Shown here in pieces: positions 4,809 to 63,556 of a stretch of 64,000 nucleotides of DNA. Under the pieces are notes generated by a model. It ran no database searches. It saw nothing but the letters and a program-made list of their open reading frames with translations, and was not told the DNA's origin. This DNA comes from Escherichia coli (GTDB taxonomy: Bacteria; Pseudomonadota; Gammaproteobacteria; Enterobacterales; Enterobacteriaceae). The translations under genes and the position numbers were made by a program. Every line of letters begins with the position of its first letter. Positions within the stretch are counted from its first letter, which is position 1. The stretch lies in assembly GCF_003334405.1 (NCBI RefSeq), contig NZ_QOWM01000005.1. The stretch is one strand, 5' to 3'.

Positions 4809-4997
4809 CCCTAATTGTATATACAAAAATGTATCTACAATTATTCTGCAATTATAGCGTTGATGTTGGAAATAGCATCACGTTTCGAATAATCAACCAT
4901 GAAATTGACAATGAGTAAGTTGGACTTGATTCATCCAATAGAATTTCTCGCCTGACATGGCACACTAAACACCTCGCTGTCGGGTAATGACTCCAAC

Positions 4998-5501
4998 TTA
5001 CTGATAGTGTTTTATGTTCAGATAATGCCCGATGACCTTGTCATGCAGCTCCACCGATTTTGAGAACGACAGTGACTTCCGTCCCAGCCTTGCCAGATGT
5101 TGTCTCAGATTCAGATTATGTCGCTCAATGCGCTGAGTGTAACGCTTGCTGATAACGTGCAGCTTTCCCTTCAGGCGTGATTCATACAGCGGCCAGCCAT
5201 CCGTCATCTATACCACGACCTCAAAGGCCGACAGCAGGCTCAGAAGACGTTCCAGTGTGGCCAGAGTGCGTTCACCGAAGACGTGCGCCACAACCGTCCT
5301 CCGTATCCTGTCATACGCGTAAAACAGCCAGCGCTGACGTGATTTAGCACCGACGTAGCCCCACTGTTCGTCCATTTCAGCGCAGACAATCACATCACTG
5401 CCCGGTTGTATGCGCGAGGTTACCGACTGCGGCCTGAGTTTTTTAAGTGACGTAAAACCGTGTTGAGGCCAACGCCCATAATGCGTGCACTGGCGCGACA
5501 T
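4998..5501 (-). pseudogene. insB: IS1 insB reading frame with an internal in-frame stop
   Basis: ORF track splits it into 5208..5501 (97 aa) and 4998..5207 (69 aa) in the same frame, separated by a TAG codon directly followed by ATG. Confidence 0.55.
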
Positions 5502-5695
5502 CCGACGCCATTCATGGCCATATCAATGATTTTCTGGTGCGTACCGGGCTGAGAGGCGGTGTAAGTGAACTGTAGTTGCCATGTTTTACGGCAATGAGAG
5601 CAGAGATAGCGCTGATGTCCGGCAGTGCTTTTGCCGTTACGCACCACGCCTTCAGTAGCGGAGCAGGAAGGACATCTGATGGAAATGGAAGCCAC
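5420..5695 (-). CDS. insA: IS1 InsA
   Basis: 91 aa [43 protein letters not shown]... Confidence 0.9.
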
Positions 5696-5751
5696 GCAAG
5701 CACCTTAAAATCACCATCATACACTAAATCAGTAAGTTGGCAGCATTACCC

Positions 5752-43091: not shown

Positions 43092-44057
43092 TTATGCCGG
43101 TAACTCCGGGGGTAATGCTTCTTCCAGTCGGTTAACCATATTGCCGAGATGGGATGCATCATATTCCATGACGGGGCGTTGCCTGATGATACTGACCACC
43201 AGTGGTTTGATTAACATATTGGTCGCGGCCCGTTGTTGTATACCGGCGGCGAAAATGATCTCCAGAGCATTCTGATCGATAACACGGGCCAGATTCTCGT
43301 TCAGATTTTCAATCTCATGTCCGGTCAGCAGGAAACTGCCGGCAAGCCATGTCACCTGCTCCTGAATCATTGCCAGAATTTTGACGCGATCTTCTTCAAC
43401 CAGCGCTCCGGCAATTTTTCCTGATACAGCGGAGGCAATCATTCCCCCCAGAACACCGCCAACCACACGCCCTGTCAGTGCACCAAATGGTCCCAGTGGA
43501 CTGAACAGTATTCCGCCCGCCACTGACCCGACAGCACCACCTGCCACACCGGAAGATGCCACGGCAAGATTCCTGATGAACTGCGTACCGGAGATCCGTC
43601 CCCGCAACATTTTGATCATGTCAGGGCCGGTTGTGACAGCTACCAGTGCCAGAGATGTCACCAGCGTACCCTTCATCACTTTGTTCAGGGCACTGATATT
43701 TCCTGCACCGGTCCCCTTCTGAAGAGCCAGTCGAACAGTCGGGCTGGCAGTCGAAAAATCAATGTGCTTCAGCATACCCTGAACAACACTGAGCCGGTGG
43801 AGTTGCTGGGTTGTGACGTAGACAGCCAGTGTGCGGGTGAAGGTTTTTCCTGCCTGGACAGCAGCTGTCTGCAGGGCAGCATCGCGATCGCCGGTGCTGA
43901 GCCAGAAGACCGATGCCGTCAGGGCAAAACTGATCCCTCCGGCCGCCAGACTGACAACCGAACCCTCGGCAATATCATAAGTGACCGATTCGATGGTCCC
44001 GAACCGGGTGATATTACGGGCCTGAGTATAAGTCAGATGAGCCATACACGCGGCTTC
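43092..44057 (-). pseudogene. C-terminal fragment of an unidentified glycine-zipper-rich island protein, fused in-frame to a truncated IS66 tnpC
   Basis: Last ~320 codons of ORF 43092..45068; [41 protein letters not shown]; unlike IS66 TnpC C-termini. Confidence 0.35.
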
Positions 44058-45950
44058 CGTTATTCTGCCGGATTCGTATAACGCCCGGTAACCACCGTAA
44101 GCATCGGCCTGAAGCACACCGCTGTAACCGGCCAGGTGATTTTGTGGATGGATACCTTTCCGGTCCGGACTGTACGCGAACCAGACCGCCGGGGGCATCT
44201 GTGAACCGGCGTTACGGTCATCACGGACGTAGACCCACAGCCGGGCTGTCCGGGTTTTACCGCTGCCCGGCTCCTGGACCGGGACGGGGATATCATCAGC
44301 ATGGACTTTACCGGGCATCAGCACATACTGGCGCAGGACGTCATACAGCGGCTCCAGCAGTTCAGCAACAGCACCTGTCCAGCGCCCCAGTGTGGCACGG
44401 CTCAGCTCCACTCCCTGACGACGGTATATTTCTGACTGGCGGTATAACGGCAGATGGTCTGCATATTTCCCGGTGACAACATGGGCCAGAAGCCCCGCTC
44501 CGGCATAACTGCGTGCAATGGGTTTTGAAGGTACTGGTGCCTGCACGATATGGTCGCACCGGCAACAGGCCTGTTTCGGACGTTGTGTTTCGATAACCTT
44601 AAAGGCGCTGCTGATAAGCTCCAGTTGCTCTGACACATCACATCCCAGAGAACTGAGTTCACCACCACAGGCAGGACAGCATTCCTCTTCCGGCCGGATA
44701 ACCCGGGTTTCACGGGGAAGTGAGGCCGGTAACGGTTTACGGGCTGAAGACTGGCGCAGGGCGGATGGCAGTACCGGGTCATATTGCTCACCCAGCGTTT
44801 CCGCCATTTCTTCCTGAAGTGCGCTGATTCGCTCCTGTGCTTCCTGTATCTGCCGTTCGGTTTTTGCACGAAGTTTTTCTGAGCTTTTACCGAACTGCAT
44901 ACGTTGCAGTTTCGCAACCAGCGCCTTCAGCCGGTTGATTTCGGAAGCATAAGCCGCCACCCGCTGTGAGAGCAGGCGGTTGTATTCAGCCATCTGGCGG
45001 ATGGTGTCCTGTTGCGTCTGCAACAGTGCCCGCAGGCGGGCGTTCTCATGAGCAAGTGAGGTGTCCATATCCTCACTTTACAACGGGTTATATGCGGATT
45101 CCAGCGCGTTCCGTTCGTTTCGGGTGCTTCCAGTTGATACCTTCAAGAAGCATGGATAACTGAGCCGGAGTAAGGTGCACCTTGCCGTCACGGGTGACTG
45201 GCCAGACGAAGCGGCCCCGCTCCAGGCGTTTGGTGAAGAGGCACAGTCCGTCACTGTCAGCCCACAACACTTTTATCTGGTCACCCCGGCGTCCGCGGAA
45301 GATGAACAGGTGTCCGGAGAACGGGTCATCCTTCAGGACGTTCTGAACTTTTGATGCCAGGCCGTTAAAGCCATTTCGCATATCGGTGATACCTGCAACC
45401 AGCCAGATACGCGAACCTGCAGGGAGAGATATCATCAGTGGCTGCTCCCTTTTATTTCGCGGATAAGTGTCTGTAATAACGCCGGCGTCAGTTTACCTTT
45501 AAGCCTGAGAGTTCCGGCCGGCAGAACCAGCTCACAACACAGACTGTCGGACGGTGTATTTATCTGCTCTGGTTCCTGTGCGGGGGCCGGGATTTTATTA
45601 TCCGGCTCCGGCGTTAACGTCACGGGAAGCAGTGCCGGCATATTTTTTCCGGAAGGCAGCAGGCCACCTTTCCGGTATTGATGGCGCCAGTTGAAGAGCA
45701 GGTTATCGTTGATTCCGTTTTCCCGGGCGATCTGCGCCACACAGGCTCCGGGCTGCAGTGACTGCTCCACTAAGGCGATTTTAAACTCATAAGGGAAGTT
45801 GGGCCGCCGGGGACGTTTTTTTACCACGGGGGCTTCGGATATAACGGTGCTTTCAGGACGTACGACTGGTACCGTGGAAAATTGTCCGTAACCCTCAGTA
45901 TCAGCTGTGAGGTAACGTTCCGGCACGGGACGCTCCGCTTCAATGGCAAT
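44058..45950 (-). mobile_element. IS66-family element, copy 1, truncated at the tnpC 3' side
   Basis: tnpA-like (45435..45926), tnpB (45088..45435; WLVAGITDMRNGFNGL) and first ~337 codons of tnpC (CCPACGG zinc-finger, through EAACMAHL); boundaries approximate. Confidence 0.65.
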
Positions 45951-47811
45951 GTCAGCGAAAAGCTCCTGACTCTGCTGATACAGGAACTGAAGCGATGATC
46001 CCGTTACCTTCCGGGACCAAAATTTGGCTGGTTGCCGGTATCACCGATATGAGAAATGGCTTCAACGGCCTGGCTGCGAAAGTACAAACGGCGCTGAAAG
46101 ACGATCCCATGTCCGGCCATGTTTTCATTTTCCGGGGCCGCAGCGGCAGTCAGGTTAAACTGCTGTGGTCCACCGGTGACGGACTGTGCCTCCTGACCAA
46201 ACGGCTGGAGCGTGGGCGCTTCGCCTGGCCGTCAGCCCGTGATGGCAAAGTGTTCCTTACGCAGGCGCAGCTGGCGATGCTGCTGGAAGGTATCGACTGG
46301 CGACAGCCCAAGCGGCTGCTGACCTCCCTGACCATGCTGTAAATCTCTTTATCCTGGTTGTCACAGAATAAGCCCGGTAAAATACGGGCTTATGAACGAC
46401 ATCTCTTCTGACGACATCTTCCTGCTAAAACAGCGCCTGGCCGAACAGGAAGCGCTGATCCACGCCCTGCAGGAAAAGCTGAGCAACCGGGAGCGCGAAA
46501 TAGACCATCTGCAGGCGCAGCTGGATAAACTCCGCCGGATGAACTTCGGCAGTCGTTCCGAAAAAGTCTCCCGCCGTATCGCACAAATGGAAGCCGATCT
46601 GAACCGGCTTCAGAAAGAGAGCGATACGCTGACTGGTAGGGTGTATGACCCGGCAGTACAGCGTCCGTTGCGTCAGACCCGCACCCGTAAGCCGTTCCCT
46701 GAATCACTACCCCGTGACGAAAAGCGACTGTTGCCTGCGGCGCCGTGCTGCCCGAACTGCGGCGGTTCACTGAGCTATCTGGGCGAGGATACCGCCGAAC
46801 AGCTGGAGTTGATGCGTAGCGCATTCCGGGTTATCCGGACGGTACGGGAAAAACATGCCTGTACTCAGTGCGATGCCATCGTGCAGGCACCTGCACCTTC
46901 GCGGCCCATCGAGCGGGGTATCGCCGGACCGGGGCTGCTGGCCCGCGTGCTGACCTCGAAGTATGCAGAGCACACCCCGCTGTATTGCCAGTCAGAAATA
47001 TACGGCCGGCAAGGTGTGGAGCTGAGCCGTTCACTGCTGTCAGGCTGGGTGGATGCATGCTGCCGGCTGCTGTCTCCGCTGGAAGAGGCGCTTCATGGCT
47101 ATGTCATGACTGACGGCAAACTCCATGCCGATGATACCCCGGTCCAGGTACTGCTGCCGGGTAATAAGAAGACGAGGACCGGGCGGTTGTGGGCGTATGT
47201 TCGTGATGACCGCAATGCCGGGTCAGCGTTGGCACCTGCAGTGTGGTTCGCTTACAGCCCGGACAGAAAAGGCATCCATCCGCAGACTCATCTTGCTTGC
47301 TTCAGCGGTGTGCTGCAAGCGGATGCGTACGCCGGGTTCAACGAGCTGTATCGCAATGGTGGGATAACGGAAGCTGCCTGCTGGGCTCATGCCCGCCGAA
47401 AGATCCACGATGTGCACGTCCGCATCCCGTCAGCACTGACGGAAGAAGCCCTGGAGCAGATCGGTCAGTTGTACGCCATAGAGGCGGATATAAGGGGAAT
47501 GCCGGCAGAGCAGCGGCTTGCTGAACGTCAGCGAAAAACGAAACCGCTGTTGAAATCCCTGGAAAGCTGGTTGCGTGAAAAGATGAAGACCCTGTTCTTC
47601 GGCTCTGGCCATGGTGGTGAGCGGGGAGCGCTACTGTACAGCCTGATCGGGACGTGCAAACTGAATGACGTGGATCCAGAAAGCTACCTTCGCCATGTGC
47701 CTGGCGTCATAGCAGACTGGCCGGTCAACCGGGTCAGCGAACTGCTTCCGTGGCGCATAGCACTGCCAGCTGAATAACACATCCCCGTCAATACGGCCCT
47801 CGCTGTACGCT
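45951..47811 (+). mobile_element. IS66-family element, copy 2, lacking most of tnpA
   Basis: tnpA C-terminal tail (...EKLLTLLIQELKR), tnpB 45995..46342, tnpC 46392..47777 (461 aa), terminal GTAAGCG-type end at about 47805-47811; TnpB only ~75% identical to copy 1. Confidence 0.65.
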
Positions 47812-48015
47812 TACTTTTGTTCGGACTGCTTATGGCCTTTTTCCACTGGTGTAGCAGGAAAGTTAACCGGCTGCCACCATGAGATGACGTGTAAACCGTG
47901 CAGGCATGTTTTCACGTGGTGACGCTTTCATTGGGGGTCTACGCCGGAACCCCAATATTGTTCACATACATGAATTTGAAAAACTAAGCGATACTGCTGT
48001 CCGTACCTTATAAAC

Positions 48016-49374
48016 TTATTTCAACGCTTCCGGCAGCGTCACAATCCACAGTTCACTGTCAGACTCCGGTTTCTCCAGTGGCTTCACTCTGAGGGTCGTT
48101 TCAACCTGCTTGTCGTCAAGCGTCAGCTTTCCTTCCGCGTTCACCCGATAATCCTTGAATGTCTTGCCCTCGACCGGATGTTGCATCGCCACCTTCACGC
48201 CAAAGTCGTTATCGTTCGCCACCGCCAGCGTTTTGCTGTCGATCAGCGCCAACCCTTCAGCCTTCTCCTGCTGCCAGCCCAAGGAGCGCAGATCAACAAC
48301 CTGCGTTTTCTGCGCAAGGGTAATGCCGCGCTGTGACAGGGTTTTCTCATCATCAAACTCCGGATACTCACCCGGCTTGTCGAAGCCTGACAGGTCGCTC
48401 GCCTTATTGAGATCGACCTCGTAAATCAGGTTACGCATTCTGTTGTTTTTATCTCTTCCCTGTTCGATCAGCAGGATGTGCTGGTTATCGAGCGCCACGA
48501 TGTCTCCGATTTTAGCGTCGCTGTTTTTGCTGTAGGCCGCGCTGTCGATAGGATAACCGTACATCGCGGTTTTTCCGCTTGCCGGATCGAAGCTCACCAG
48601 ACGCGTAAACAGCGCCTTTTTCTTGCTCTTAGCGTCGATATCCAGCGTACTTTGCACGGCGACAATAATACGCCCGTCCGGCATACGGGTGAGGCCTTCA
48701 AAGCCGCGGTTCGCCTGACGCCATTTGAGGATATTTGGCAAACCGCCCGCAATCGCTTTTTCCCCTTCCGCCGCCTGCGGACCGTGGATTGCCAGGATTT
48801 TCCCTTTACTGTCGATGTTAATCAGGAACGGGCCATACTCATCGCACAGCCAGTAACCTCCTTTACCATCCGGAGTGATCCCTTCCGTATCCAGCCCGCG
48901 ATTATCCCCCTTCAGTCTATGTAACGTGTCGCTGAAGGCCACTTCATTGGTGGAGCCAATCACGTCGCTTGCCAGCGGCAGACCGTTGATCGCGCCTTTA
49001 TCGTCATGCAGAGGACGAGGATCGATGGCCTCCGCTTTGCCGTTTTGTACACGAATCGTCATCAGCAGCGGCGCGAAATCTGGCGTAACGAAAATTTTAG
49101 TTTCGTTTTTCCCCTCTTTCGGTGAATCCGCGTTCGGACCGCGATCGGTAATGGTTGCGAATGTCAGGGCATCGCCCTGTTTACCGGTGAACAGCAGGCC
49201 AGAACCTATCCCAACCGGAAGGCCGTTCGGGAATGCACTGGCAAATGCGCCGGCGTAGTTCACGTGCGTGCCTTCTGGAAAACTGACGACATAGCGCTCA
49301 GCCGTAGGTTGTGCCGCCAGGGCAGAGAAAGAGAGCGTACAACCGATTAGCACGGGAATAATTTTTCTTTTCAT
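48016..49374 (-). CDS. secreted phytase-like (esterase-like-activity-of-phytase family) protein
   Basis: ORF 48016..49389, start at MKRKIIPVLIGCTLSFSALAA signal peptide; repeated beta-propeller-like segments. Confidence 0.45.
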   Translation of the reverse strand: MKRKIIPVLIGCTLSFSALAAQPTAERYVVSFPEGTHVNYAGAFASAFPNGLPVGIGSGLLFTGKQGDALTFATITDRGPNADSPKEGKNETKIFVTPDFAPLLMTIRVQNGKAEAIDPRPLHDDKGAINGLPLASDVIGSTNEVAFSDTLHRLKGDNRGLDTEGITPDGKGGYWLCDEYGPFLINIDSKGKILAIHGPQAAEGEKAIAGGLPNILKWRQANRGFEGLTRMPDGRIIVAVQSTLDIDAKSKKKALFTRLVSFDPASGKTAMYGYPIDSAAYSKNSDAKIGDIVALDNQHILLIEQGRDKNNRMRNLIYEVDLNKASDLSGFDKPGEYPEFDDEKTLSQRGITLAQKTQVVDLRSLGWQQEKAEGLALIDSKTLAVANDNDFGVKVAMQHPVEGKTFKDYRVNAEGKLTLDDKQVETTLRVKPLEKPESDSELWIVTLPEALK

Positions 49375-49637
49375 ATTGTTAGCATCCATAAAGTGAAGAT
49401 CACACTACACCATAAAGAAGAAACGAGTCAGGAAAATGACATCGAATGGCAACATGCGCGGGCCTGAGGCCAAAGAAATGTAAAACACTGTTGTTATTTG
49501 TAACAACGGAAACATTTACGGAAATTATTTGTCTTTCTTCGTGATCAAAAATGCTGTGTCTTGTTGGATTGGAGTGATGAGGGCTGCGTTTAGGAAACGC
49601 CCTATATTGTACGGTTGCATTATCGCGGTAGGGGTAA

Positions 49638-49790
49638 TGCACGTGTCAGTATGATGAGCTGACCACACTCACGTGGGTGGACTGGTATAACAATCGACGA
49701 TTGCTGGAAAGGCAGGGCCATATCCCACCGGCAGAAGCAGAAAAAGCTTATTATGCTTCCATCGGAAACGATGATCTGGCAGCCTGAGTT
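49638..49790 (+). pseudogene. 3' remnant of an IS3-family transposase (integrase-core C-terminus)
   Basis: Frame reads ...WVDWYNNRRLLERQGHIPPAEAEKAYYASIG...stop, the conserved W-x-x-WYN-x-R-R-x-H...PAE transposase tail with no upstream part. Confidence 0.4.
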
Positions 49791-50013
49791 CACAGATAAA
49801 ACACTCTCCAGGAAACCCGGGGCGGTTCACTTAGCCGCGTGTCCATTATTGCTGGATAAGATCAGTCAATAATAGCAGACCAACCACATCATGAGTCATT
49901 CTGACCGACACATGCCAGAAGCAGAGGCTCCATCCCATTTTATACCTACCTTATAACACTTAGAAAAACAACATGTTAAAAATGTCTATTGGAAACAATT
50001 TTATTTCCAATTG

Positions 50014-50032
50014 TAATGATAACCATTCTCAT
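50014..50032. promoter_or_regulatory. Fur box upstream of fecI
   Basis: taatgataaccattctcat versus Fur consensus GATAATGATAATCATTATC. Confidence 0.6.
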
Positions 50033-50074
50033 ATTAATATGACTACGTGATAATTAACTTTTGATGCACTCCGC

Positions 50075-50592
50075 ATGTCTGACCGCGCCACTACCACAGC
50101 TTCCTTAACGTTCGAGTCGCTTTATGGCACACATCACGGCTGGTTGAAAAGCTGGCTGACGCGCAAACTCCAGTCTGCTTTTGATGCAGATGACATTGCC
50201 CAGGACACTTTTTTGCGGGTAATGGTCAGCGAAACGCTCTCGACGATCCGCGATCCTCGCTCCTTCCTCTGCACTATCGCCAAACGCGTGATGGTGGACC
50301 TGTTTCGCCGAAACGCGCTGGAAAAAGCGTATCTGGAGATGCTGGCGCTTATGCCGGAGGGGGGAGCGTCTTCACCTGAGGAACGCGAAAGCCAACTCGA
50401 GACCCTACAACTCCTCGACAGCATGCTGGACGGGCTAAACGGCAAAACACGTGAAGCGTTTCTGCTTTCGCAACTGGATGGTCTGACATACAGCGAGATT
50501 GCGCACAAACTCGGTGTTTCCATCAGCTCCGTGAAAAAATACGTGGCGAAAGCCGTCGAGCACTGCCTGCTGTTCCGTCTGGAGTATGGGTT

Positions 50593-50596
<4 letters not shown>
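50075..50596 (+). CDS. fecI: ECF sigma factor for ferric citrate transport
   Basis: 173 aa, recognisable FecI. Confidence 0.9.
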
Positions 50597-58177: not shown

Positions 58178-58519
58178 TTATACAGGCCAGTTGATGGATC
58201 GATTGTTATCAATGATATCTTCATGAGTCGGTGTCTCACCCAGCTTACCGAAGCTGGCATAAAGTGAAGGCAGACGGGCCCGTCCTTCTCCCTTTTTCGC
58301 CAGAGGGAAAGCGCGAAGCATGGTGGCAGCCTCCCAGTCACAACAATAGGATGGTGTGCACGGCTGCTGACGCCATGATTCAGCGATAGAGCCGGAAAAT
58401 ACGGGGTCAAAGCCGGTATCATTAACCAGAGTCATCGTGACCTGTACTGCGGCTGGATGATCTCCTGCTACTGCAACTGCTAGGCGACCGCGGCTCCCTT
58501 CAGGTAGTGAAGTGGTCAA
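58178..58519 (-). pseudogene. C-terminal fragment of an NAD(P)-binding oxidoreductase-like gene
   Basis: 113 aa ORF resembling only the C-terminal part of F420/NADP-type oxidoreductases (VAGDHPAAVQVTMTLVNDTGFDPV); no N-terminal Rossmann motif. Confidence 0.3.
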
Positions 58520-58795
58520 CTTAAACTGGCCACCGATTTAGAGTTTTTCCAGTAGCGGTGTTCCGATTCGTTTGGGGGCAACCCGCCGTTATTGTCATGC
58601 GGTCTTAGCGAGCTGTAATACCCGATGATATAGTCTGTGATCGCATGAGCAGCTTCGCTAAAGCTTATGCGTTAGCGCTCTACAGAAGTACAGAGCATGT
58701 CTGCACGGTTGCTCTGGGTTATAGAGCAAAATTGCGGGTATATTGAAAGGTGGTACGCAATTTATTACGTGAAAAAGCTGTAATTTCTAGCCAGT

Positions 58796-58837: not shown

Positions 58838-59935
58838 ATGGATTACAGCATGGCTAGTGTTGATGCAGATTACTGCTACTCGTTTCCGGCTATACGTGGC
58901 ATTCAGGCTGGTCGCCCTTTCTATATCGCCACATGCCCGATGCGTATCATCCCGAAAATATTCAGTTTTGATGAAAATGATGTGCCACCGGAATTACGCG
59001 CACAGCGCACGCTAAATAAATCGCGCATTCCCGAGATGGTACGTTATTTGTTGGAAAACCCTAAAGATTATGTGTTTTCAGCTCTGACGGCTTCCATTGC
59101 CGTAGACGTTCAATTTGATGAGTTTCCAGGTTCTAACAATCTGGGGACGTTGTGCGTACCAATGGATGCGCAAATTCTAATCAATGATGGACAACATCGC
59201 CGTAAAGCGATTGAAGACGCTTTAGACGCTCGTCCGGAGCTGGGCCAGGATAATATCCCGGTGTTGTTCTTTGTCGATGAAGGCTTAAAGCGTAGCCAGC
59301 AGATGTTCGCCGATCTGAATAAATACGCCATTCGCCCCAGCCCATCGCTGGCGTCGCTATACGATCATCGCGATGCCTGTTCGAATCTGGCGCGTTATCT
59401 GGCAATGTCAGTAGAGCCGTTTGTTGGGATGACGGAACTGGAAAAATCTGGCATTAGCCAGAGGTCGAATAAGCTATTTACGTTGAGCAGCATCAAGCAG
59501 GCTACCCGCGCATTGTTGGGCAAAGATCCCAAAGAGGATAACTTTGAGGAATGCACCCACATTGCTACCCAATATTGGCAGGCTATTTTTAGTGTAATGC
59601 CTGATTGGCAATTAGCGGCTAAAAAGGAAGTTTCACCGGTTCAATTGCGACAAGATTATGTTCACGCTCATGGCATTGGATTGCAGGCACTTGGGCAACT
59701 AGGATATACCCTGCTGACGGATTATCCTGAGCAATGGCCGGAGAAAATCGCTGCACTCAAAACATTTAACTGGCGTAGAAACAATCCGGACCTCATCAAG
59801 CGAGCGATGCAGCATGGGAAGTTGAGTAAAACCAGTACCGCGATCCAGTTAACCTGCAATGCGCTAAAAACCGCACTCTCAATTCCCCTCACTCCTGAAG
59901 AACAGGAGCTTGAAGCTCAAATGGTTGTCTCATGA
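58838..59935 (+). CDS. dndB: DndB-like DGQHR-domain protein (regulator of DNA phosphorothioation)
   Basis: 365 aa with exact DGQHR motif (LINDGQHRRKAIEDAL); first gene of a four-gene coupled operon. Confidence 0.8.
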   Translation: MDYSMASVDADYCYSFPAIRGIQAGRPFYIATCPMRIIPKIFSFDENDVPPELRAQRTLNKSRIPEMVRYLLENPKDYVFSALTASIAVDVQFDEFPGSNNLGTLCVPMDAQILINDGQHRRKAIEDALDARPELGQDNIPVLFFVDEGLKRSQQMFADLNKYAIRPSPSLASLYDHRDACSNLARYLAMSVEPFVGMTELEKSGISQRSNKLFTLSSIKQATRALLGKDPKEDNFEECTHIATQYWQAIFSVMPDWQLAAKKEVSPVQLRQDYVHAHGIGLQALGQLGYTLLTDYPEQWPEKIAALKTFNWRRNNPDLIKRAMQHGKLSKTSTAIQLTCNALKTALSIPLTPEEQELEAQMVVS

Positions 59936-61554
59936 GTAAATTAGTTCAGGCCTATGATTTGGCCGAATACGAAGATTTTATTAATCAGGAACAGTTCGCC
60001 GGACGTCCTCTGGCCGAATATGTTGCTGAGGTTCAACGAATTTATTGTGCGGATAAACGTCCGTGGGTGATTGGCTACAGCGGTGGGAAAGATTCTTCCG
60101 CTGTGATCACGCTGGTGTATCTGGCCTTGCTCGGCCTGCCCCCGGAAATGCGCAGCAAAGATATTTTTGTGGTGTCGTCCGATACGCTGGTCGAAACACC
60201 GGTAGTCGTGGATCTGATTAAGAAAACGATGTTGCAGATTGAGGCGGGAGCGAAGCGTAACGGCTTGCCGATCACTCAACACGCGGTAACGCCTAAAACG
60301 AATGAAACCTTCTGGGTCAATTTGCTGGGGAAAGGTTATCCGGCTCCAACTCGTAGTTTCCGTTGGTGCACTGAGCGCATGAAAATCAACCCGGTGAGTG
60401 ACTTTATTAAAGATAAGGTCAGCCAGTTTGATGAAGTCATCGTCGTACTTGGTTCGCGCAGTAGTGAAAGTGCTTCTCGTGCGCAGGTGATCGCAAAGCA
60501 CAAGATTGATGGATCACGCCTTGCCCGGCATACCACGCTGGCAAATGCATTCATCTATACCCCCATTGATACCTGGGATGTAGAAGATGTCTGGAAGCTG
60601 CTGCGGGGCGCGTTCCGCTATGCCCCTGAAGATATCGACGAGTGGGAAAGCCCGTGGGGTGGAAACAACCGTCCACTGTGGACGTTGTATATGGATTCTT
60701 CCGCACAGGGTGAATGTCCTCTGGTAATTGATGATAGTACCCCTTCCTGCGGCAACTCGCGTTTTGGCTGTTGGACCTGTACCGTTGTCACTAAAGATAA
60801 GGCGATGGAAAGCCTGATCAAAAACGGTGAAGAATGGATGTCTCCGTTGCTGAAATATCGTGATCTGCTGGCATTTACCACCGATCCGGTGAATAAAGAC
60901 ACGTTTCGAAACTATAAGCGCCGTACTGGTAAGGTGAGCTATCAGTACGCTAAAGAAAGTGATGAGCCGGGGGCTGAGCGTAAGCATGTTCCAGGTCCTT
61001 ACTGGCTAAAATACCGTCAGCAATGGCTCAAAGAATTGCTGGAGATAGAGCGCGATTTGAATGCTCAAGGCCATACCATTACGTTAATTACCAAACCAGA
61101 GCTGCATGCGATTCGTCAGGAGTGGTTGAAAGATCCTAATGAACCAGACTGGTATGACACGCTGCCGGGTATTTACCGTGAAGTGTATCAACAGGATTTA
61201 GACTGGGTGGTGGACGATCAGTCGCGCTTTGATGCCAGCGATGCAGATCTGTTGGTGCAGATAGCGCAGGGATTTGACGTTGTGCCTGAAATGGTGATGA
61301 AACTCATCGAGCTGGAAGTTTCAATGGAAGGCTTAAGCCGTCGTCAGGGCATTTTTGACAAACTTGGCACGATTTTAAAGCAGGACTGGGGCACTCTCGA
61401 AGAAATTGAACAACAACAGGTCACTCTGCAAAAACGAGTTGAACGAGATATTCATCAGGAAGAACTTACAAAGCTGGAAACTGAACTTCAGGTTTTACAG
61501 CGCAGAATTGTTGATGCCAGTGAATCCTCGTTACTGATTGGGGAGGAGAAATAA
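59932..61554 (+). CDS. dndC: DndC-like PAPS-reductase-fold sulfurtransferase
   Basis: 540 aa; PP-loop SGGKDSS; cysteine cluster CGNSRFGCWTC; ATGA overlap with dndB. Confidence 0.85.
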   Translation: MSKLVQAYDLAEYEDFINQEQFAGRPLAEYVAEVQRIYCADKRPWVIGYSGGKDSSAVITLVYLALLGLPPEMRSKDIFVVSSDTLVETPVVVDLIKKTMLQIEAGAKRNGLPITQHAVTPKTNETFWVNLLGKGYPAPTRSFRWCTERMKINPVSDFIKDKVSQFDEVIVVLGSRSSESASRAQVIAKHKIDGSRLARHTTLANAFIYTPIDTWDVEDVWKLLRGAFRYAPEDIDEWESPWGGNNRPLWTLYMDSSAQGECPLVIDDSTPSCGNSRFGCWTCTVVTKDKAMESLIKNGEEWMSPLLKYRDLLAFTTDPVNKDTFRNYKRRTGKVSYQYAKESDEPGAERKHVPGPYWLKYRQQWLKELLEIERDLNAQGHTITLITKPELHAIRQEWLKDPNEPDWYDTLPGIYREVYQQDLDWVVDDQSRFDASDADLLVQIAQGFDVVPEMVMKLIELEVSMEGLSRRQGIFDKLGTILKQDWGTLEEIEQQQVTLQKRVERDIHQEELTKLETELQVLQRRIVDASESSLLIGEEK

Positions 61555-61555
61555 C

Positions 61556-63556
61556 GTGCTCATTAAACAGCTGGTATTACATAATTTTCGGGTATTTAAC
61601 GGTACACATACCATTGATCTGGCACCCAGAAAGCGTCCGCACGATTTGAATCCACGACCTATTGTGCTGTTTGGTGGTTTAAACGGCGCAGGGAAAACGT
61701 CTATCCTGTCGGCGATCCGCATAGCGTTGTATGGACGACTGGCGTTTGGGCTAGCGACTCAACAGCAAGAGTATATCGAACAACTCAGTGCATTGATTCA
61801 TAACGGCGCGTACTATATTGAGCAGCCGGAAGAAGCATCTGTAGAACTGACGTTTACCTATAATAAAGGCGGTCATGAGGCCGAATTTACCGTTACGCGA
61901 ACCTGGAAAAAGGGGAAGAGGGACCGCCTTTCTCTGCAACAGGATGGGCAGCCACTCAGTGAGCTGGATTACGATCAGTGCCAGGGATTTCTAAATGAGT
62001 TAATTCCGCATGGCATTGCTGATTTGTTCTTTTTCGATGGCGAGAAAATTGCAGAACTTGCTGAGGACGAATCCGGTAATATTTTACGTACTGCCGTACG
62101 ACGCTTATTGGGGCTGGATCTCATCTCTAAACTGCGTAACGATTTAATGATTTTTGTTAAGCGTCAGCAATCCAGCCAGCTAGCAAGTTCTCAGCAACAA
62201 CAGATTGCAGAGCTTGAAAAACAGAGTAAAGAATTAGCCTGCCAGACAGAAGCACTGCTGGAAAGCGCCGATTTTGCCAAATCGCGGATTGAGTTTCTAT
62301 CTAAAGATATAACCCATTATGAAGGCTTGCTAAATGCTCAGGGGGGCGCTTTTGCCCAGACTAAAGCGCAGGAAAAACAGAAAGTCGAAACGCTGCTAAA
62401 AGATAAAGAACATCTGGAAAAAGCACTGAGACAAGAATGCGATGGCTCGCTACCTTATGCGCTTGCGCCCACTATTTTGTCTCATTTGCTGCAACAAATT
62501 GCTGATGAAACGCAAATTAAACAGGCAAAAAGCTTTGAAAAAGAGCTGAGCCAGTTTTTAACGCAACTCAGAAATGATATTGCATTTCGTTCTGCGGGGA
62601 CTGGCAAAATAGCAGCTGAAGCGATTACCGATAATCTAAAAGATTATATGGCAACGAAACCAAAAGGTGATTTGCTCTTTGATATCTCTGAGCGTGAAGC
62701 AGGTATGCTTCAACAGTCTATTGAGATAGATAGTAAAAGAGCATGGCAGCGTTTCGAGCTTTATCGCACACAGTTATCTGAGATTGAACAACAGTTAGAA
62801 CAAGCGGCTGCTAATATTGCCCGCGCTCCTGAAGATGAGCAGCTGATGGATCTCTTTGAAAAATTACGTGACCTGGATAGGCAGCGCGAAGCCCAATTGC
62901 AGAAATATCGGTCATTGCTAGAAGATGCTAAACGTAAAAAACAGCAGCAACTGGATTGTGTTCGTCAGATTCAAAAAGCGCATGACGCCGCTCGTTATCA
63001 GCACAGTTATAGCAGTGCGTTTAAGAATGCTCAGGAAACGATAAATTTACTCGATCGCTACAGCGATGTATTAACCCAGGCTCGGGTAAAAACGCTGTCG
63101 ACAAACTTCGAGCTTGCTTACCGTAAGTTGGCTCGCAAAGAGGATTTACAACTTAGTGCGCATATCAACCCTCAAACGTTTGATGTTGAATTAATTGATG
63201 AGAATGGCTCAGTAATTAACCGTAAGTTACTTTCTGCTGGTGAAAAACAGATTTATGCAATTGCTATTCTTGAGGCGCTGGCGAAAACCTCTGGCCGTGA
63301 TTTACCAGTGATCATTGATACACCATTGGGTCGTCTGGACTCTCAACATCGAGATAAATTGATTAATCACTACTTCCCTGAAGCCAGTCATCAGGTTGTG
63401 TTGCTTTCTACCGATACTGAAGTAGATGAACGTTATTTTGTTGATCAGTTGCGTGATGATATCTCTCATGCTTATGAGATTGTGTTTAATGCACATACTA
63501 AGTCATCAACGCTGAAGCCTGGTTATTTCTGGGAATTAACTAAGGAGGCTATCTGA
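61556..63556 (+). CDS. dndD: DndD-like SMC/ABC-type ATPase
   Basis: GTG start after SD gggaggag; Walker A GGLNGAGKTS; long coiled-coil middle; C-terminal DTPLGRLD signature-like segment. Confidence 0.8.
   Translation: MLIKQLVLHNFRVFNGTHTIDLAPRKRPHDLNPRPIVLFGGLNGAGKTSILSAIRIALYGRLAFGLATQQQEYIEQLSALIHNGAYYIEQPEEASVELTFTYNKGGHEAEFTVTRTWKKGKRDRLSLQQDGQPLSELDYDQCQGFLNELIPHGIADLFFFDGEKIAELAEDESGNILRTAVRRLLGLDLISKLRNDLMIFVKRQQSSQLASSQQQQIAELEKQSKELACQTEALLESADFAKSRIEFLSKDITHYEGLLNAQGGAFAQTKAQEKQKVETLLKDKEHLEKALRQECDGSLPYALAPTILSHLLQQIADETQIKQAKSFEKELSQFLTQLRNDIAFRSAGTGKIAAEAITDNLKDYMATKPKGDLLFDISEREAGMLQQSIEIDSKRAWQRFELYRTQLSEIEQQLEQAAANIARAPEDEQLMDLFEKLRDLDRQREAQLQKYRSLLEDAKRKKQQQLDCVRQIQKAHDAARYQHSYSSAFKNAQETINLLDRYSDVLTQARVKTLSTNFELAYRKLARKEDLQLSAHINPQTFDVELIDENGSVINRKLLSAGEKQIYAIAILEALAKTSGRDLPVIIDTPLGRLDSQHRDKLINHYFPEASHQVVLLSTDTEVDERYFVDQLRDDISHAYEIVFNAHTKSSTLKPGYFWELTKEAI

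Follow-up and report, generated by a model that had tools for sequence, protein, structure and literature searches.

The gene located upstream of fecI in the window, i.e. the whole stretch of 64,000 nucleotides of Escherichia coli DNA that was analysed, is best explained as a foreign gene for an exported beta-propeller protein, which natively would be a phosphate hydrolase under the control of PhoB and which in E. coli would be a passenger of the fec island. The probability of this explanation as a whole is estimated at about 0.7. An earlier note on the same DNA had described a secreted phytase-like gene, stranded between two insertion sequences and delivered or rearranged by them next to the iron-citrate operon. 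The observation itself was confirmed by the analysis, and its interpretation was partly supported.

The phytase-like gene and its product

The open reading frame extends from position 48016 to 49389 on the minus strand of the 64-kb window. The second ATG, at position 49374, is the start codon used by RefSeq and by all orthologs, and the sequence context ahead of it, GGATG...ATG, is conserved. With this start, the gene (48016..49374, minus strand; ORF list, Pfam and RefSeq) is intact and encodes a protein of 452 amino acids, the length given in the earlier note, which is identical to the family of WP_000823243.1.

In the Pfam search the protein matched PF13449, "Phytase-like / esterase-like activity of phytase", with an E value of 7.5e-43 and a score of 147.9. 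The match comprises residues 60-396 of the protein and positions 4-284 of the 284 positions of the model, so that the phytase-like domain is present at full length; PF13449 was also the sole Pfam family matched at E ≤ 10. An AlphaFold2 model, calculated from an alignment of 45 sequences, showed an all-beta propeller with very high confidence (pLDDT of 95, pTM of 0.91). The phytase-like beta-propeller character, which had been suggested from the letters of the DNA, was thus borne out. The word "phytase-like" holds for membership in PF13449, whereas no membership in a true phytase family was found.

Other searches yielded little beyond this family. No NCBIfam family was matched by the 452-amino-acid protein at E ≤ 10, and no PDB sequence was matched by the single sequence at E ≤ 1; a PDB search with a profile of 45 sequences gave single-blade NHL/Pizza similarities only. 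The fold neighbours closest to the model were YjiK, glutaminyl cyclase and a Ca-activated nucleotidase. Among the neighbours in the AlphaFold database with TM values of 0.8-0.96, every one is a member of PF13449, and the structure search against AFDB50 returned only uncharacterised members of this family. At E ≤ 0.001, 2065 cluster representatives matched the protein, which corresponds to a family of about 2000 clusters at 50% identity. The alignment of the family contains numerous near-invariant Asp, Glu and Asn residues. A characterised member of PF13449 with a demonstrated activity was not found in the structure-neighbour and literature searches, and literature searched under the protein accessions yielded nothing, while that under PF13449 comprised a single methods preprint on an unrelated subject; expression data for the gene did not turn up in the searches either. 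The gene therefore encodes an intact, single-domain beta-propeller protein of the uncharacterised family PF13449, and "phytase-like" is the name of a Pfam family, a prediction and not an activity.

Export of the protein

The presence of a signal peptide, which had likewise been proposed, was corroborated by inspection of the Sec-type N-terminus and by a hydrophobicity scan. The putative signal peptide consists of codons 1-20 (MKRKIIPVLIGCTLSFSALA; 49315..49374, minus strand) with a predicted cleavage site ALA-AQ. As judged by inspection, it is composed of the n-region MKRK, the h-region IIPVLIGCTLSFS and the c-region ALA-AQ. The cleavage site, (S/A)xA-A, is conserved in the orthologs, and residues 1-20 of the AlphaFold2 model showed low pLDDT values.

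A lipoprotein was also considered, since the sequence LIGC occurs at residues 9-12. This was rejected because the cysteine is located only 11 residues from the start. In the orthologs of Cronobacter, Serratia and Yersinia, Cys12 is replaced by Ala or Ser, and the lack of conservation of this residue, while the cleavage site is conserved, argues against a lipoprotein as well. With a standard Sec signal and a non-conserved cysteine, the protein should be exported by the Sec pathway (SPI) and should be soluble in the periplasm, as predicted from these sequence features.

Origin of the gene

In a scan with the single protein, in which one genome per species was considered, 74 ortholog loci were found. 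The nearest orthologs are found in the chromosomes of Enterobacter, Lelliottia and Pseudenterobacter (86-90% amino acid identity), followed by those of Pantoea, Scandinavium, Pluralibacter and Yokenella (77-82%) and by more distant ones of Buttiauxella, Serratia, Yersinia, Cronobacter and others (approximately 64%). Synteny with yfaZ-like and yjiA-yjiX-cstA genes is seen in two genera, yjiA-yjiX-cstA being close to the gene in both Enterobacter hormaechei and [Enterobacter] lignolyticus; in Serratia, Cronobacter and Pantoea, the neighbours of the ortholog are all different. At none of the inspected loci of other genera did the gene adjoin fec. Its native hosts include Enterobacter, Lelliottia, Pantoea, Scandinavium, Buttiauxella, Serratia, Yersinia and Cronobacter, in whose chromosomes the gene stands alone.

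The homology to Enterobacter at the DNA level (blastn) starts at position 48013, just past the stop codon, and reaches at least to position 49529, which is 155 bp upstream of the start codon. This extension suggests that the gene arrived together with its own promoter region. The upstream region that was carried in with the gene comprises 49375..49655 (minus strand; blastn and alignment) and contains a palindromic element at 49477-49518. On the other side, a spacer of 201 bp (47815..48015; blastn) lies between the end of the IS66-family element and the stop codon. In blastn it did not resemble the sequence that follows the orthologs in Enterobacter, and its sole blastn match was one E. coli-derived contig.

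In comparison to the Enterobacter orthologs, a dS of approximately 0.57 and a dN/dS of approximately 0.09 were obtained. These values point to a functional gene from an unsampled relative and not to a recent transfer from a known species. Judged by its sequence relationships, the phytase-like gene is foreign and horizontally acquired. An ancestor of the common fec island of E. coli and Shigella would have captured the gene along with roughly 280 bp from its native upstream region.

A Pho box upstream of the orthologs

In an alignment of the upstream regions, an 18-bp motif, TGTCAT-N4-(C/T)TG(T/A)CA(T/C), is kept where the surrounding DNA stops aligning between genera; in the orthologs, the distance from it to a -10-like hexamer further downstream is about 10 nt. 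For scoring, an approximate position weight matrix was derived from five E. coli Pho boxes; the best match within 200 nt upstream of the gene was determined at 68 ortholog loci and compared with control percentiles. The best score exceeded the 95th percentile of the controls (8.4) at 67 of the 68 loci and the 99th percentile at 91% of them. At most loci the Pho box lies at a near-constant distance of 44-60 nt before the start codon. It is the only conserved cis element of the orthologs and is placed at the position of the -35 hexamer.

In these properties, the upstream regions of the orthologs resemble the PhoB-dependent promoters of E. coli (pstS, phoA, phoB and phoE type), with which they share TGTCA-type direct repeats that are 11 bp apart and replace the -35 hexamer; examples are CTGTCATTAATCTGTCAC of Franconibacter and TTGTCATAAAAATGTCAC of Serratia. 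This architecture suggests that the native gene belongs to the phosphate starvation regulon, with PhoB as its most likely activator when phosphate is scarce.

The copy in the E. coli island differs from PhoB-dependent promoters in its degraded second repeat, CTGACTC. The corresponding site, ATGTCATTTTCCTGACTC (49425..49442, minus strand; alignment with the ortholog motif), has an intact first half-site, and two consensus positions are lost in the second. It is the only match of the pattern in the 64-kb window, for a pattern that was picked after the site had been seen. A candidate -10 hexamer, TATGGT, is located 10 nt downstream of it at 49409-49414. A simple promoter scan upstream of the phytase-like gene did not reveal a sigma-70 consensus, which is explained by the fact that PhoB-type promoters have no -35 hexamer. 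The site scored 5.1, against 10.9-21.4 in orthologs, and thus below the 95th percentile of the controls, so that control by PhoB in E. coli itself is not supported, and due to the two lost positions the regulation of the gene in E. coli is uncertain.

Putative function

In the native hosts, the protein most likely hydrolyses an organic phosphate compound in the periplasm, and acidic, probably Ca2+-binding residues at the centre of the propeller would carry out this hydrolysis. Several observations support phosphoester chemistry, and none of them is decisive. Among 25 longer relatives, the PF13449 domain is fused to a 5'-nucleotidase in three and to a ParB-like nuclease in one. The conserved acidic residues point in the same direction. 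Furthermore, a protein of Nodularia that bears the same family name is strongly induced by phosphorus limitation (PMC9846622), and "phytase-like" proteins of Synechococcus are induced under phosphorus limitation (PMC11020310); in both cases the comparison is one by name. Counted against phosphoester chemistry is that neither YjiK nor glutaminyl cyclase, which lead the list of fold neighbours, is a phosphatase.

Two other proteins were considered as relatives. Psip1 was rejected, since its family is another one, in which some members are fused to a phytase-like domain (PMC11098088). PhoAaty, known as the "atypical alkaline phosphatase" in algae and cyanobacteria, could not be tied to the family, since the PhoAaty papers examined are silent on a phytase-like domain; a single line of annotation in the paper on Nodularia (PMC9846622) is what suggests the link.

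It was also considered whether the protein is a genuine phytase, which would release phosphate from myo-inositol hexakisphosphate in the periplasm like the beta-propeller phytases of Bacillus. The family name and the propeller fold fit such an enzyme, as do the conserved acidic residues and the occurrence of orthologs in soil and plant bacteria, e.g. Pantoea, while the Pho box of the orthologs suits any enzyme that releases phosphate. With the Bacillus-type phytases (PF02333) the protein indeed shares the secreted propeller, the many conserved acidic residues and a predicted phosphate-related regulation. However, it differs from them in that there was no HMM match and no sequence match to the solved phytases, and these phytases were not among the top fold neighbours. 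As the HMM, PDB sequence and fold-neighbour comparisons all spoke against it, membership in PF02333 or the 3-phytases was rejected, and a true phytase activity is quite improbable.

The protein could also be a propeller enzyme or a binding protein unrelated to phosphate, such as a lactonase, a cyclase or a YjiK-like protein, in keeping with its closest fold neighbours. The sequence identity to these neighbours amounts to just 11-16%, and the conservation of the Pho box at 67 of 68 ortholog loci as well as the fusions to 5'-nucleotidase and nuclease domains argue against a role outside of phosphate metabolism, which makes such a protein unlikely.

A native phosphate hydrolase under the control of PhoB is thus the preferred function. 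What is new in this study is the prediction, based on the conserved Pho boxes, of periplasmic hydrolases of phosphate starvation for an uncharacterised family in Enterobacterales. As a tentative extension, the enterobacterial PF13449 proteins may represent an unrecognised class of PhoB-controlled periplasmic phosphoesterases or nucleotidases with a YjiK-like, Ca-dependent propeller. If this were true, approximately 40% of the E. coli strains would hold a working copy in the fec island and would be capable of a scavenging of organic phosphate that K-12 lacks.

Insertion sequences flanking the gene

Downstream of the gene, the window contains a 5'-truncated IS66-family element, referred to as copy 2 (45890..47814, plus strand; ORFs, RefSeq on identical DNA and homology to a complete copy). 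IS66-family elements are characterised by the genes tnpA-tnpB-tnpC, by terminal repeats starting with GTAAGCG and by an 8-bp target duplication. Copy 2 begins inside tnpA, and its left end and most of tnpA are missing, while tnpB (45995-46342) and tnpC (46392-47777, 461 amino acids) are present. Its right inverted repeat ends with ...GTACGCTTAC at position 47814; the element thus flanks the gene as proposed, and its end, which had been placed at 47811, is located three positions further on. The truncation was caused by a second, different IS66-family element in opposite orientation. At the ends of the complete copy in a reference genome the 8-mers differ (AAATAGTG vs TTTTGTTC), i.e. there is no target duplication.

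On the upstream side, a 174-bp 3' remnant of an IS1203/IS629-like element of the IS3 family (49656..49829, plus strand; RefSeq pseudogene, DNA identity and NF033516) starts 281 bp before the start codon of the phytase-like gene. It consists of the last 43 codons of orfB (stop codon at 49785-49787) and the right terminal repeat, which ends with ...GGCGGTTCA. RefSeq lists a pseudogene "IS3 family transposase, missing N-terminus" at 49656-49787; the DNA is approximately 95% identical to annotated IS1203 copies over about 175 bp, up to the end of the element at about 49829, and the 43 amino acids match positions 344-369 of the 369 positions of NF033516. The transposase remnant reported earlier is therefore real, and the coordinates given for it (49638-49790) were slightly off. 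Since only the last 174 bp remain, the element is a dead remnant. Homology to transposases was thus present on both sides of the gene, to the IS66 family on one and to the IS3 family on the other.

The lack of an 8-bp target duplication around the complete IS66 copy of the reference genome and the cut of the IS3-family element inside orfB fit a rearrangement mediated by insertion sequences. A composite transposon on the chromosome was rejected, because the flanks belong to the IS66 family and the IS3 family, respectively. It was also considered whether the two IS3-family remnants around fec, one upstream and one downstream of fecE, form a single composite transposon; they show no sequence similarity to each other, and this was rejected as well. 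With flanks of different families and an unrelated IS3 remnant beyond fecE, the chromosomal gene is not carried by a composite transposon. Of the idea of a cargo delivered or rearranged by insertion sequences, the foreign DNA and the signs of rearrangement stand, whereas the different IS families speak against a composite transposon with the gene as cargo. The captured piece is now bounded by the IS66-family element and the truncated IS1203/IS629-like tail.

The fecI upstream region contains a homolog of ykiE, a small-protein gene of K-12 (49866..49934, minus strand; transferred from the MG1655 annotation), and a Fur-box-like site of the fecI promoter with four mismatches to the consensus (TGTAATGATAACCATTCTC; 50012..50030, plus strand). 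The gene fecI itself, the first gene of fecIRABCDE (50075..50596, plus strand; ORFs and RefSeq), is divergent from the phytase-like gene, which starts 700 bp upstream of it on the opposite strand, and the location upstream of fecI was thereby confirmed. An Rfam search of 47700-50200 revealed no RNA element.

Distribution in E. coli and relation to the fec island

Among 5426 complete E. coli genomes, 2754 contained fecIR. Some part of the phytase-like gene was present in 2262 genomes and the full-length gene in 2191. The whole block, consisting of the IS66 end, the gene, the IS3 tail and the region upstream of fecI, was found in 2167 genomes (approximately 40%). The copies were at least 99% identical in all but one of the matching records, and in 99% of the carriers the phytase-like gene adjoins fecI. 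A block that is so common at near-identity suggests one acquisition, which has since been fixed in the usual fec island.

The earlier note had called the gene "stranded", which implies an accident specific to one strain. This cannot be maintained in view of the 2167 genomes and of the table of the SRL island, in which the segment is listed (PMC6980539). The comparison of the fecI upstream region among fec-positive strains showed that the layout bounded by insertion sequences recurs in 79% of them and is not strain-specific; about 21% lack the block, K-12 among them. [quoted passage not shown] In the table of this island, orf34 corresponds to the present protein (99.78%) and orf35-37 are the IS66 genes, and the island carries fec (PMC6980539). 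The gene order of orf34-orf37 is the same as in the window; a difference is that in the window the IS66 copy is 5'-truncated by the second IS66-family element. A layout common to about 40% of the E. coli genomes is ordinary; thousands of genomes already have the gene and the two IS remnants annotated as a matter of routine, in this same order, and the arrangement is thus known.

The fec region of K-12 (KpLE2: fecI-ykiE-IS1F) resembles the window from position 49865 onwards with 99.3% identity, but neither the phytase-like gene nor the IS3 tail and IS66 element that flank it are present there; beyond this breakpoint, 30 unrelated bases and then IS1F follow. K-12 thus represents the minority form of the fec region. 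In B strains, as in K-12, fec is present without the phytase-like gene.

These data also bear on the question whether the gene, silent or decaying in E. coli, is a hitchhiker that is kept only by its physical linkage to the fec operon, on which selection acts. In the E. coli copy the Pho box is degraded (5.1 in comparison to 10.9-21.4 in orthologs), the IS3 tail truncates the upstream region at position 49655, the gene adjoins fecI in 99% of the carriers, K-12 and B strains keep fec without it, and truncated variants of the gene occur in databases, all of which would fit a gene in decay. On the other hand, the reading frame is full-length with all residues conserved in the family, and of the 2262 genomes with some portion of the gene, 2191 have it complete. 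An identity of at least 99% leaves too short a time for selection within E. coli to be assessed, and the dN/dS of approximately 0.09 mostly reflects the history before the transfer. A gene that is silent or decaying in E. coli is somewhat unlikely. In the preferred explanation, the gene is a passenger that would have been handed down, and would have spread, as a fixed component of the fec island.

A cooperation with the ferric-citrate system, in which the protein would free iron from phosphate-rich chelators such as phytate, would be in agreement with the tight linkage to fecI in 2167 genomes and the SRL island. However, the orthologs of other genera never adjoin fec, the gene and fecI are divergent with the IS tail between them, and about 21% of the fec-positive genomes, including K-12, lack the block. 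In addition, no Fur box was detected near the phytase-like gene, where the best site has eight mismatches in comparison to four at the fecI site, and plasmids carry the block without fec. A link to iron is thus very improbable, and the phytase-like gene is most probably not functionally coupled to the uptake of ferric citrate.

As a feature of the genome, the phytase-like gene beside fec matters little. For the fec island, which has been linked to mastitis and extraintestinal fitness, it is a passenger gene conserved in four out of five fec-positive strains. The complementary piece, comprising part of tnpC, the gene and the IS3 tail, is carried without fec by approximately 55 plasmids; in the one plasmid examined, NZ_CP042894, the block is located between two direct copies of IS1.

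Signs of rearrangement around the phytase-like gene

The junction at 49864/49865, between the IS3-family tail and fecI, is a recurrent breakpoint. The fec-side DNA is common to E. coli K-12 and the window from 49865 only; beyond this position K-12 has 30 unrelated bp, followed by IS1F. The gene-side DNA is shared by the plasmid copies and the window up to 49864, except for 18 bp (49830-49847), which are deleted. The K-12 form and the plasmid form look like complementary halves of the layout found in the window. On plasmid NZ_CP042894, the phytase-like block is flanked by IS1 copies, to which a full-length IS1 at 4983-5750 of the window shows 96-99% identity. Furthermore, a 2971-bp contig (L008, CAJKJS010000287.1), binned in a MAG of an 'uncultured Ruminococcaceae', is 98.5-99% identical to the E. 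coli block; that this contig comes from E. coli and was mis-binned is almost certain.

On the other side of the gene, the two IS66-family elements designated 'copy 1' (43092-45926, minus strand) and 'copy 2' (45890-47814, plus strand, starting inside its own tnpA at 45890) are distinct elements in head-to-head arrangement, with an identity of only 68-78% in the window. 'Copy 1' contains a chimeric ORF of 658 aa (43092-45068), of which the N-terminal ~350 aa are TnpC-like; no NCBIfam model matched its C-terminal 312 aa. At the complete IS66 copy beside the gene in the reference genome L001 (NZ_CP068155, position 9827; window 47814/47815), the 8-mers at the left (AAATAGTG) and right (TTTTGTTC) ends differ and, consequently, no target-site duplication is present around this copy. 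Its absence suggests that the two flanks were joined through recombination or deletion and not by simple insertion.

Neighboring elements and related proteins

About 100-140 nt upstream of the phytase-like gene, a palindromic element (AAATGT...GTTGTTATTTGTAACAAC...ACATTT, 49477-49518) was detected, which is partially conserved in the upstream regions of Enterobacter and not in those of Pantoea. Its core, TGTTA-N4-TAACA, resembles a LacI/GntR-type operator. Between the IS3 tail and fecI, the segment 49866-49934 (minus strand) is homologous to ykiE, a gene for a small protein in K-12; at this position, RefSeq lists a slightly longer hypothetical protein of 30 aa in other strains.

The fec operon is followed by DNA phosphorothioation genes (58838-63556, plus strand), beginning with dndB (TIGR03233, E 2.6e-138) and continuing with dndC- and dndD-sized ORFs. 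Ahead of them, RefSeq annotates a second IS3-family remnant, unrelated to the first (equivalent of window ~58516-58665).

Longer members of the phytase-like family (P0274, P0154 and others; alignment A2) possess additional 5'-nucleotidase (Metallophos and 5_nucleotid_C), ParB-like nuclease, choice-of-anchor I and SLH domains. Because of these domains, a cell-surface or extracellular role of the longer proteins in nucleotide or nucleic-acid breakdown is suggested.
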